From an uncultured Methanosarcinales archaeon (lineage in GTDB: Archaea; Nanobdellota; Nanobdellia; Woesearchaeales; ARS49): a stretch of DNA of 24,000 nt. The position numbers and the translations under genes are program-made. Every line of letters begins with the position of its first letter. Within the stretch, counting starts at the first letter, position 1. Shown one piece after another: positions 22,385-23,971 of this stretch. The notes beneath the pieces are model-generated. The model made no database searches. It was given only the letters and a program-made list of their open reading frames with translations, and was not told the origin of the DNA. The stretch is taken from positions 1,436 through 25,435 of the forward strand of contig CAZTVK010000025.1 in assembly GCA_964617195.1 (NCBI GenBank). The letters run 5' to 3'.

Positions 22385-22696
22385 TTACGGAAATTCAGTT
22401 CTGCCAACAGCCAAAGGAAGAACAATAAAATGATGCAATGCGTCAGATAGAAGAAGGGAAGTTCCAATAATCAATAACCAGTCATACTGCGCAAAATACC
22501 AGGCAAGCAAAACAACAATTCCGACGTATCCATGATGAATGCGCACAGGCATTTTCCAATCACGAGCACGAAGCTTGAAGGCGAAGCGACCAATGCACGT
22601 AATCACCTCGATAATGACCGTTAATATGACGAGTTCAAGAAGCACAGTATTTGACTCTGGCAAAGCAGTATATAAATCTAATTTCTCACTGGACAT
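22385..22696 (-). CDS. small integral membrane protein (about 103 aa, 3 TM), unknown function
   Basis: MSSEKLDLYTALPESNTVLLELVILTVIIEVITC...GYVGIVVLLAWYF...LLIIGTSLLLSDALHHF. The longer track ORF (to 22771) would read through non-coding-looking direct repeats in two different frames, so the ATG at 22696 is preferred. Confidence 0.55.
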   Translation of the reverse strand: MSSEKLDLYTALPESNTVLLELVILTVIIEVITCIGRFAFKLRARDWKMPVRIHHGYVGIVVLLAWYFAQYDWLLIIGTSLLLSDALHHFIVLPLAVGRTEFP

Positions 22697-22756
22697 TCCG
22701 TAAACTTTCCGGATTTTTATCGTCGACAAACACTGGACAAAAAAGCCACTGGACAA
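22687..22756. repeat. three direct copies of CACTGGACA(A) in a divergent promoter region
   Basis: Exact copies at 22687-22695, 22731-22740 and 22747-22756 (TTGTCCAGTG on the minus strand). They lie between the small membrane-protein gene and the LAGLIDADG gene. Confidence 0.7.
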
Positions 22757-22798
22757 TTGCTCACAGCACATAAAAAGGCGAGTTATTAAATTAAAAAT

Positions 22799-23902
22799 AT
22801 GTTAGTTCATAAGGCTTATCGGAAATTTTCAAAAGAACAAAAGTTAGTTCTCCTGACAAAAGAATACAACTTATCGGAGAAAGAAATTCTACGTATCAGA
22901 TCAATAGAAAATCCGAAGAAGAGGCTACTAGAAGCAGCCAAACTTCAATTTGAATGTTTGGGCGATATACACAATGATATTACGGCGTGGATTGCAGGTT
23001 ATTCCCAAGAAACATCAGTTAGGAGCGTTTTCGGAACGGCATTGGAATTAAGAAAGAATTTTGTCAAACTTCCAGAGAACATATCTTCATATTCCTGGAT
23101 GGATATAAAACGAAGAGTGAAAATTCCAACATGGTCGGAAGATTTAGCTGAAGAAACAGGAGTTCATTTAGGAGACGGATCGCTTCAAATAAACAAGTAT
23201 GGAAAATGGCAGAACTATGCGTACACGATCGATGGTCACTTAATCGACGACATGGCCTACTATGATTTCCACGTAATTCCATTAATTCAAAGATTGTACA
23301 ATCTTACTCCTAGAAAAAGAATCAATAAGGATCGTAATTCCTGTCAACTAGTAATAAAATCAAAAGCCGTTAGCATCTTCAAAAAGGAAATTCTAAAATT
23401 ACCCGTGGGAAATAAAATAGGTGCTAAAATCCCTAAGGAAATAATTGAAGATGATGTTTTTTCTAAAAAGTTTGTATGCGGGATGATCGATACTGATTTC
23501 ACAGTTACCAAAGATTTGCAAATTAGAGGCAGTTTAGTAAGTTTGAATGTAATTAAGGGAATGTCAGAGATTCTTGATAAACTGAATATGAATCATTATA
23601 TTCGAATAAAAGACGGTGTGGGCTACATAGTCATAAACAAGCCAGCATCGATCGAGCTACTGGAAGAAATTAAAAATCCTAAACATACTTCGAAATATCT
23701 TCTCTGGCAACGTTTTCATAAATACATTCCGTTTACATCAACAGTTGAACGATTGGCGGTTCTTGAAAACATTGTGCCTTTCGAAGATCTACTGAGATTG
23801 AGCGAAAAAAGAAAAAAAGCCCAGGCAAGCGCCCGGGCCTACGCCCCCGGTGAGAATTTCGGTGCTTTTAAAGCACACTCGAACTCACGACCTACTGATT
23901 AA
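22799..23902 (+). CDS. free-standing double-motif LAGLIDADG homing-endonuclease-like protein
   Basis: Two LAGLIDADG-type motifs about 100 aa apart: LAEETGVHLGDGSLQINKYG and KKFVCGMIDTDFTVTKD. An N-terminal extension of about 120 aa precedes them. The gene looks AT-richer and uses more T-ending codons than its neighbours. Its last 61 nt overlap tRNA-Asn on the opposite strand. Confidence 0.78.
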   Translation: MLVHKAYRKFSKEQKLVLLTKEYNLSEKEILRIRSIENPKKRLLEAAKLQFECLGDIHNDITAWIAGYSQETSVRSVFGTALELRKNFVKLPENISSYSWMDIKRRVKIPTWSEDLAEETGVHLGDGSLQINKYGKWQNYAYTIDGHLIDDMAYYDFHVIPLIQRLYNLTPRKRINKDRNSCQLVIKSKAVSIFKKEILKLPVGNKIGAKIPKEIIEDDVFSKKFVCGMIDTDFTVTKDLQIRGSLVSLNVIKGMSEILDKLNMNHYIRIKDGVGYIVINKPASIELLEEIKNPKHTSKYLLWQRFHKYIPFTSTVERLAVLENIVPFEDLLRLSEKRKKAQASARAYAPGENFGAFKAHSNSRPTD

Positions 23903-23936
23903 CAGTCAGTCGCTCTACCGGCTGAGCTACGGGGGC
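23842..23936 (-). tRNA. tRNA-Asn (anticodon GTT) with a 22-nt non-canonical insertion (intron) in the T-loop
   Basis: Minus strand reads GCCCCCG-TA-GCTC-AGCCGGTA-GAGC-G-ACTGA-CTGTTAA-TCAGT-AGGTC-GTGAG-[TTCGAGTGTGCTTTAAAAGCACCGAAATT]-CTCAC-CGGGGGC-G. Everything folds as a standard cloverleaf except that the T-loop is 29 nt instead of 7. Confidence 0.8.
23857..23878 (-). other. putative tRNA intron in the T-loop (boundaries +/- 2 nt)
   Basis: Removing about 22 nt (GTGTGCTTTAAAAGCACCGAAA or a register-shifted equivalent) restores a 7-nt T-loop, TTCGATT. The insert contains a GTGC-TTTAAAA-GCAC hairpin, and the flanking TTCG/CGAA can pair. Confidence 0.6.
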
Positions 23937-23960: not shown

Positions 23961-23971
23961 CCTTTTAAAAC
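23961..23971 (-). promoter_or_regulatory. TATA-box-like promoter element for tRNA-Asn
   Basis: Minus strand reads GTTTTAAAAGG, 35 nt upstream of the tRNA 5' end. Confidence 0.45.

Follow-up and report, generated by a model that had tools for sequence, protein, structure and literature searches.

The window analysed here, a 24,000-nucleotide (nt) stretch of an uncultured archaeon assigned to the Woesearchaeales (contig C25:1436-25435 of an assembly of 1.09 Mb in 26 contigs with a completeness score of 100%), carries near its right end a complete tRNA-Asn(GTT) gene with an interrupted T-loop and, convergent with it, a free-standing LAGLIDADG homing-endonuclease open reading frame (ORF). The tRNA gene (23842..23936, minus strand) comprises 95 nt including the discriminator G, does not encode CCA and folds into a cloverleaf. 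Read in minus-strand order 23936..23842, it consists of GCCCCCG-TA-GCTC-AGCCGGTA-GAGC-G-ACTGA-CTGTTAA-TCAGT from the acceptor to the anticodon arm, followed by AGGTC-GTGAG-[29 nt]-CTCAC-CGGGGGC-G. Pairing is perfect in all four stems and the anticodon reads GTT, while the place of the normal 7-nt T-loop is taken by 29 nt (TTCGAGTGTGCTTTAAAAGCACCGAAATT). These features confirm what an initial sequence-only reading of the window had reported about the arms, the acceptor and T stems and the excess length of the loop. A scenario named in that reading, in which another tRNA-Asn serves the cell and the present copy decays, was not borne out: no second tRNA-Asn was found in the assembly with Rfam, ARAGORN or an intron-tolerant spliced aligner, and no decay was seen.

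The gene escapes standard tRNA finders, as had been anticipated for introns of this kind. ARAGORN does not report it with intron mode either on or off, and the Rfam tRNA model yields a single, mis-aligned match of 35.2 bits that skips the T-arm. When the proposed intron (23856..23877) is deleted, ARAGORN reports tRNA-Asn(GTT). Routine annotation would therefore leave this genome without a tRNA-Asn. Since standard finders fail, the intron-tolerant spliced aligner was written for the tRNA search; in addition, a custom scan of the whole genome for strict bulge-helix-bulge (BHB) motifs, with ARAGORN then applied to the candidates after splicing, picks up the tRNA-Asn(GTT) gene.

The splicing motif and the splice register

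Folding of the 95-nt transcript yielded a structure of -43.4 kcal/mol (z = -4.9; none of 200 shuffled sequences was as stable), with identical minimum free energy (MFE) and centroid solutions. It contains a helix-bulge-helix-bulge-helix (hBHBh') motif (23850..23888, minus strand), for which the MFE and centroid structures, covariation and an estimate of chance occurrence all speak. The outer helix is the T-stem (GUGAG/CUCAC, 5 bp), the central helix is formed by UUCG/CGAA (4 bp) and the inner helix is the hairpin GUGC/GCAC; the two bulges of 3 nt each are AGU on the 5' side and AUU on the 3' side. The insert hairpin and the TTCG/CGAA pairing that had been noticed by eye are thus both part of the fold. 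The motif had, however, been described as a "relaxed" substrate, and this description has to be abandoned, as the MFE and centroid folds both give the strict 3-4-3 form. Such a strict motif arises in only about 0.05% (~5e-4) of random or shuffled 22-mers set at this site.

In each bulge, archaeal EndA cleaves after the second of the three nucleotides, as can be checked against the canonical intron at 37/38. Application of this established rule to the fold delimits a 5' exon of tRNA positions 1-59 ending in ...GUGAG-UUCGAG (23878..23936, minus strand), a 22-nt BHB intron at 59/60 with the organization U-GUGC-UUUAAAA-GCAC-CGAA-AU (UGUGCUUUAAAAGCACCGAAAU; 23856..23877, minus strand) and a 3' exon of positions 60-73, U-CUCAC-CGGGGGC-G (UCUCACCGGGGGCG; 23842..23855, minus strand). 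The intron assignment draws on the fold, on the alignment to empty alleles and on covariation in the hairpin, and the 3' exon is the same as the 3' end of intronless orthologues. Because the cleavage rule and these orthologues agree, the register, which had been considered ambiguous, is fixed at 59/60; all that is left of the ambiguity is, at the DNA level, one T common to the start of the intron and the start of the 3' exon (59/60 or 60/61). Removal of the 22 nt restores a 7-nt T-loop and the canonical cloverleaf as predicted, but the spliced loop is UUCGAGU according to both lines of evidence, not TTCGATT.

The proposal of a tRNA-Asn(GTT) gene with a non-canonical T-loop intron is therefore supported by the fold and by the intronless orthologues, and the insert can be regarded as an intron of the archaeal BHB type that would be spliced by EndA. 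Taken alone, it belongs to an already known class: 59/60 is a recognised site of non-canonical tRNA introns (PMC4090602), and introns at this position are described for the pre-tRNA-Cys(GCA) and pre-tRNA-Pro(GGG) of ARMAN-2 in PMC3239211 and the same review.

Intronless orthologues and covariation

Intronless tRNA-Asn(GTT) genes were identified in nine genomes of the same genus (G001, G003-G006, G009, G011, G012 and G014). In all nine, the T-loop TTCGAGT directly abuts the 3' strand of the T-stem, which matches the predicted spliced product. The 3' part reads exactly TCTCACCGGGGGCG in seven of them, and the exons of G001, G005 and G006 are 100% identical to those of the window gene. Base-level alignment with G001 and G003 revealed a clean 22-nt insertion in the window gene. 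Three further genomes of the genus (G007, G010 and G013) have a canonical 37/38 intron in their tRNA-Asn instead.

The two closest homologues of the endonuclease ORF are located on metagenome contigs (L132 and L133) that are syntenic with the window locus, and the tRNA-Asn genes on these contigs carry a 21-nt intron at the same site (TGCACCTGATGGTGCCGAAAT and TGCATCAGACGATGCCGAAAT). A three-way alignment with the window genome (G000) revealed no variation in the central helix or in either bulge. In the intron hairpin, three of the four pairs are altered on both sides (GUGC/GCAC, GCAC/GUGC and GCAU/AUGC) with every cell remaining paired, and shifting the hairpin partners abolishes pairing. The strength of this covariation is modest, as it comes from three sequences only and 17 of 500 shuffles equal the observed value; judged from the alignment, the pattern is that expected of a spliced BHB intron. 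The reading frame in which the tail of the endonuclease ORF crosses the intron differs in L132 and L133 from that in the window, which indicates that conservation of the intron is imposed by the RNA and not by the protein.

Host splicing machinery and other interrupted tRNA genes

The whole genome contains one EndA gene, whose product of 175 aa combines PF02778 and PF01974 and has its closest structural relatives in the enzymes of M. kandleri, N. equitans (alpha) and M. jannaschii. RtcB is encoded as well (1.5e-171). No second EndA paralogue or subunit was detected at E <= 10, a search that a very divergent one could escape. Judged by gene count and size only, the enzyme looks alpha4-like. PMC3239211 states that alpha4 and alpha2 endonucleases need a strict 3-4-3 motif. 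By that rule, the strict motif found here means that even an EndA of the alpha4 or alpha2 type would accept the intron.

Introns interrupt no fewer than 11 of the 42 detected tRNA genes (ARAGORN reported 31 without and 42 with intron search). The Asn gene and a Lys(TTT) gene, both with T-loop introns, appear only after in silico splicing. This tRNA-Lys(TTT) gene (C15:11700-11830, minus strand) carries a second 59/60 intron of the same design: it is 30 nt long, forms a strict BHB with the central helix UUCA/UGAA and leaves the spliced loop UUCAAAU. A tRNA-Ile with the anticodon TAT and a canonical 43-nt intron was also found (C12:2706-2824, minus strand); tRNA-Ile(UAU) is uncommon among archaea. 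The assembly further includes 11 contigs of 1-2 kb (C1, C7-C9, C13, C16, C18, C21, C23, C24 and C26) with a G+C content of 59-71%, compared with 43% for the genome, and these most likely represent contamination of the bin.

The endonuclease gene and the inserted cassette

The ORF that converges on the tRNA-Asn gene, P0001 (22799..23902, plus strand), encodes a double-motif LAGLIDADG protein of 367 aa and had not been connected with the intron in the sequence-only reading. Its conserved protein part stops near 23812. The final ~30 codons cross the trailer, the 3' exon, the intron and the T-arm in the antisense direction and end at the complement of the anticodon loop; this tail is unconserved as protein. 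P0001 alone gives only a weak LAGLIDADG_3 score (E = 0.014). In an alignment of 29 sequences (P0001 and 28 relatives), two motifs, LAExxGIxxGDG and FLRGxxDTDGS, are evident and their acidic residues are retained; the instances in P0001 are GVHLGDGS (D126) and CGMIDTDF (D233, an invariant column). Comparison of the family profile with the PDB returned intein endonuclease domains (1e-17), PI-PfuI (7e-13), I-Tsp061I (2e-11) and I-DmoI (5e-8), and Pfam LAGLIDADG_3 is matched by 26 of the 29 family members. Among G000, L132 and L133, the ratio of nonsynonymous to synonymous substitution (dN/dS) of the ORF is 0.06-0.11, with synonymous divergence saturated. The endonuclease ORF is therefore a maintained gene under purifying selection and no relic.

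Comparison with the syntenic loci of four relatives (G001, G003, G009 and G012), which share 70-80% nucleotide identity with the window on both flanks, revealed that the ORF is part of an inserted cassette of ~1.2 kb (22604..23839) that is missing from all four. It begins 2 nt past the tRNA and takes the place of ~42 bp that, in the relatives, separate the tRNA 3' end (+2) from the membrane-protein gene downstream. Its content is limited to the ORF with its promoter region and a hairpin that resembles a terminator. The cassette and the 22-nt intron are the two differences from the empty alleles, with 16 conserved bp between them, and the four relatives that lack the endonuclease gene also lack the intron.

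Upstream of the tRNA gene, a TATA-box-like element, TTTTAAAA (23963..23970, minus strand), is located 27-34 nt before tRNA position 1 and represents its putative promoter. The candidate terminator on the other side, a GC-rich hairpin (GCCCGGGC/GCCTGGGC) followed by T7-C-T6 (23805..23839, minus strand), falls within the inserted cassette. The small membrane-protein gene beyond the cassette (22385-22771, minus strand) follows the tRNA at a distance of 2-4 nt in G001 and G003; in the window, its start is displaced by the cassette and its N-terminus is different and longer. Between this gene and the start of the LAGLIDADG ORF, and likewise within the cassette, the sequence CACTGGACA(A) is repeated three times (22687-22756).

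The endonuclease family at tRNA genes

Homologues of the family are present in 64 of 201 sampled genomes of the order, with 0-12 copies per genome within the genus. Among 59 loci that were fetched, a tRNA gene touches or overlaps the ORF in 43 by the automatic criteria of an intron-tolerant alignment and in most others by eye, compared with a chance expectation of ~0.14 tRNA genes per 3.4 kb. An Rfam scan by E-value of 12 endonuclease-gene loci matched no tRNA at all, which reflects a failure of sensitivity, as multi-intron tRNAs are visible there by eye. Two other strong family matches in the window genome, C19:103975-104685 (plus strand) and C25:79843-80379 (plus strand), both adjoin tRNAs: the former is oriented away from a tRNA-Arg(TCT)-like gene with multiple introns (C19:103791-103898) and the latter ends ~25 nt before a tRNA-Ala(GGC). 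At another locus (L058, G059:C3, ~1141-2253), an endonuclease gene is situated upstream of a multi-intron tRNA-Gly within 19-nt direct repeats; the repeat is the 5' end of the tRNA-Gly (GCGTCGGTAGTACAATGG) and has the look of a duplicated target or of a 5' fragment that was displaced.

In the clade of P0001, all 11 members with available context adjoin a tRNA-Asn(GTT), and nine of these tRNA genes carry an intron in their 3' third. It is located at 59/60 in G000, L132, L133, G109, G098 and L138, and at 60/61 in L136. In L134 (2595-2665, minus strand) and L135 (2605-2702, minus strand), which were parsed by hand, strict-BHB introns at 70/71 fall in the 3' strand of the acceptor stem and leave a final exon of 3 nt. 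More distant relatives in G039 and G101 converge on a tRNA-Asn with a 53/54 intron. The tRNA-Asn genes of L041, L042 and L067 (from G109, G098 and G101, respectively) have three to four introns, located in the D-loop, the anticodon stem, at 37/38 and in the T-arm, and are not detected by the Rfam tRNA model even at a relaxed E-value. Where no endonuclease gene converges on the tRNA-Asn, an intron in the T-arm or the acceptor 3' strand was found in one of 31 genes (G025, in the T-loop). An order-wide BLAST search with the spliced tRNA-Asn proved too unspecific, as it also matched Lys, Thr, Arg and Met genes, and only GTT loci confirmed by ARAGORN were counted.

Similar arrangements occur at other tRNAs of the genus: the tRNA-Met of G007 and G011 and the tRNA-Trp of G009 combine a T-arm intron with a convergent endonuclease gene, whereas the tRNA-Met and tRNA-Trp of the window genome have neither. 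Across 42 loci with an ORF <=300 nt from the tRNA, introns on the T-arm side were found in 10 of 22 tRNA genes with the endonuclease gene on their 3' side and in 2 of 20 with the gene on their 5' side, a crude count that is uncorrected for relatedness and suggestive only. The sides were recounted by orientation, since automatic classification of the proximal end misfires where the ORF runs deep into the tRNA. The deep nodes of the endonuclease clade tree do not resolve, and intron position can be read against enzyme phylogeny only in the group of G000, L132 and L133.

Probable splicing, possible homing and alternative explanations

These observations very probably describe the functional single-copy tRNA-Asn(GUU) gene of a small DPANN-type archaeon, its T-loop interrupted at position 59/60 by a 22-nt BHB intron that is spliced by proteins. 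Pairing of U54-G57 with the CGAA near the 3' end of the intron would create the 4-bp central helix of the precursor, EndA would cut both bulges, and RtcB would ligate the exons to yield a normal 73-nt tRNA with the T-loop UUCGAGU. For the pair, the favoured reading is that the intron and the convergent LAGLIDADG gene 16 bp away constitute a two-part selfish homing element, a proposal that stands at about an even chance. In this model, the endonuclease would cut intronless tRNA-Asn genes in their 3' third, and repair from an occupied allele would copy in the endonuclease gene and the intron together. The intron would then keep the occupied allele uncuttable while leaving the tRNA unharmed. The broader version of this proposal, that ORF-less BHB introns and tRNA-docked endonuclease genes form homing pairs in DPANN-type archaea, with each endonuclease subfamily attached to one tRNA, in the present case tRNA-Asn with introns at 59/60, 60/61 or 70/71, could equally well prove right or wrong.

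As to the tRNA gene itself, a decaying pseudogene, or retention of the 22 nt as an enlarged T-loop in the mature tRNA, might be suspected from its rejection by the standard tRNA finders. Both are very improbable, as the gene is the sole tRNA-Asn of a genome scored as 100% complete, its stems are perfect, its exons equal those of intronless orthologues and compensatory changes preserve the splice motif. Moreover, a T-loop of 29 nt would abolish the conserved contacts between T-loop and D-loop. Even less credit can be given to the idea that an integrase-type integrative element or virus once targeted the 3' end of the tRNA gene, leaving a scar and a newly supplied 3' part. The 3' ends of tRNA genes are classic integration sites in archaea and the tRNA and the cassette are only 2 nt apart, but the LAGLIDADG ORF is the sole inserted gene and the insertion measures only ~1.2 kb. 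An integrative element was rejected because no integrase was found and the genome contains no duplicated tRNA 3' part or copy of the intron at <=4 mismatches.

A more serious, though still less likely, account holds that the intron is spliced as described but unrelated to the endonuclease gene, the conserved tRNA ends being landing sites of the LAGLIDADG family, the introns of this intron-rich lineage coming by some other route, and the two elements being neighbours by coincidence. It finds support in T-loop introns that have no endonuclease gene nearby (tRNA-Lys(TTT) of this genome, tRNA-Asn of G025, tRNA-Thr of G035 and tRNA-Arg of G018), in endonuclease genes of other subfamilies that adjoin intronless tRNAs (Gln, Ala, Thr and Trp) and in the abundance of interrupted tRNA genes in this lineage. 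Coincidence is harder to reconcile with the distance of only 16 bp between the 22-nt and the 1.2-kb difference from four syntenic relatives, and with an intron that stays at 59/60 in three alleles despite saturated synonymous divergence of the endonuclease. The higher frequency of T-arm-side introns next to a 3'-side endonuclease gene, within the limits of that crude count, points in the same direction, as does the contrast between 9 of 11 tRNA-Asn genes with 3'-third introns in the clade and 1 of 31 without the gene, the former being a sample of related members that was ascertained through the endonuclease gene. It is also conceivable, but unlikely, that the intron originated at this site, either as a change conferring resistance or as a scar of repair: the docked endonuclease would have gone on cutting the resident tRNA gene until an insertion that chanced to be spliceable was selected, and the intron would be protective without having been co-imported. 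The different nearby sites (59/60, 60/61 and 70/71) and unrelated sequences of the clade introns are what independent origins predict; a random insert, however, would give an in-register strict BHB in only ~5e-4 of cases, and the homologous intron common to G000, L132 and L133 was thus inherited with the endonuclease gene at least in that group.

Several findings weigh against the two-part homing element. Besides the unaccompanied T-loop introns, the endonuclease genes at intronless tRNAs and the ascertainment of the clade sample, two clade members (L137 and L139) adjoin a tRNA-Asn with a canonical intron only. Among G000, L132 and L133, nucleotide identity is 74-76% for the endonuclease gene and ~70% for the flanks; with gene and flanks diverged to a similar degree, long vertical co-inheritance fits as well as transfer. 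The flanks of G000 are nearer to those of the empty G003 (~80%) than to those of the occupied L132 (~70%), so that horizontal spread or precise loss on more than one occasion is required to explain the distribution. An earlier interpretation as a recent intron gain in G000 was withdrawn, because L132 and L133 have the same syntenic endonuclease gene and intron with a divergence like that of the flanks. Accordingly, the intron may have been gained and then have spread, or it may be old and have been lost precisely from the empty alleles.

Relation to known systems and implications

The tRNA-Asn intron resembles those of ARMAN-2 and the Thermoproteales in its 59/60 position, in being a protein-spliced BHB intron and in the many interrupted tRNA genes of its host, and it shares the strict 3-4-3 form with the ARMAN-2 tRNA-Pro intron. 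It differs in affecting tRNA-Asn, in occurring in another lineage and in the presence of a single 175-aa EndA, instead of the three-unit epsilon2 or the (alpha-beta)2 enzyme. The portions of PMC3239211 and PMC4090602 that describe these introns mention no neighbouring endonuclease gene. A BHB-spliced intron associated with a LAGLIDADG enzyme is likewise known from archaeal rRNA genes with I-DmoI and I-Tsp061I. There, the endonuclease gene resides inside a long intron of the rRNA, whereas here the intron of 22 nt is ORF-less, the gene it interrupts encodes a tRNA, and the endonuclease gene is external to that tRNA and encoded on the other strand.

A free-standing endonuclease gene beside a gene with an ORF-less intron is also the configuration of collaborative or trans homing, as described for F-CphI and the psbA group I intron of cyanophage S-PM2 (PMC6083498) and for T4 mobE with the td intron and I-TevIII (PMC2790892). 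The proposed logic is the same, in that the intron-interrupted target is immune and both parts move together. In the phage cases, however, protein genes are interrupted by self-splicing group I ribozymes and the enzymes come from other families, while the present intron relies on the host EndA, interrupts a cellular tRNA gene and is combined with an enzyme for which cutting is only proposed. Rfam found no group I intron in the window, and the tRNA-Asn intron is a BHB intron of 22 nt. Since it is not of group I type, the pair may work like collaborative homing, as an archaeal equivalent spliced by the host, and would yet lie outside the described class.

Large-scale transposition of tRNA introns, by which BHB introns were gained after speciation, has been proposed for the Thermoproteales (Fujishima et al., 2010, as summarized in PMC4090602), and the mechanism is called unknown in the review. 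That case rests on similar introns in different tRNAs; here, by contrast, the intron occurs just once in the genome and is associated with an endonuclease gene. A preprint on Asgard archaea that tested mobile elements, copying between genes and reverse transcription concluded that the arrival of introns "remains open" (10.64898/2026.10.13.758758). Our literature search found no paper in which endonuclease genes are described as docked at tRNA genes of archaea or as linked with BHB introns in tRNAs.

For specialists in archaeal tRNA, a 59/60 intron alone is routine, and the present example mainly illustrates that default annotation can lose the sole tRNA-Asn of a genome. The locus as a whole makes the question of intron arrival testable, as occupied and precise empty alleles with identical exons occur in one genus. 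Further assets are a splice motif backed by covariation and an intact endonuclease gene under purifying selection whose relatives are always located at tRNA-Asn. If the proposal is true, the two-part element would constitute a DNA-level route for the gain and spread of non-canonical tRNA introns in archaea.

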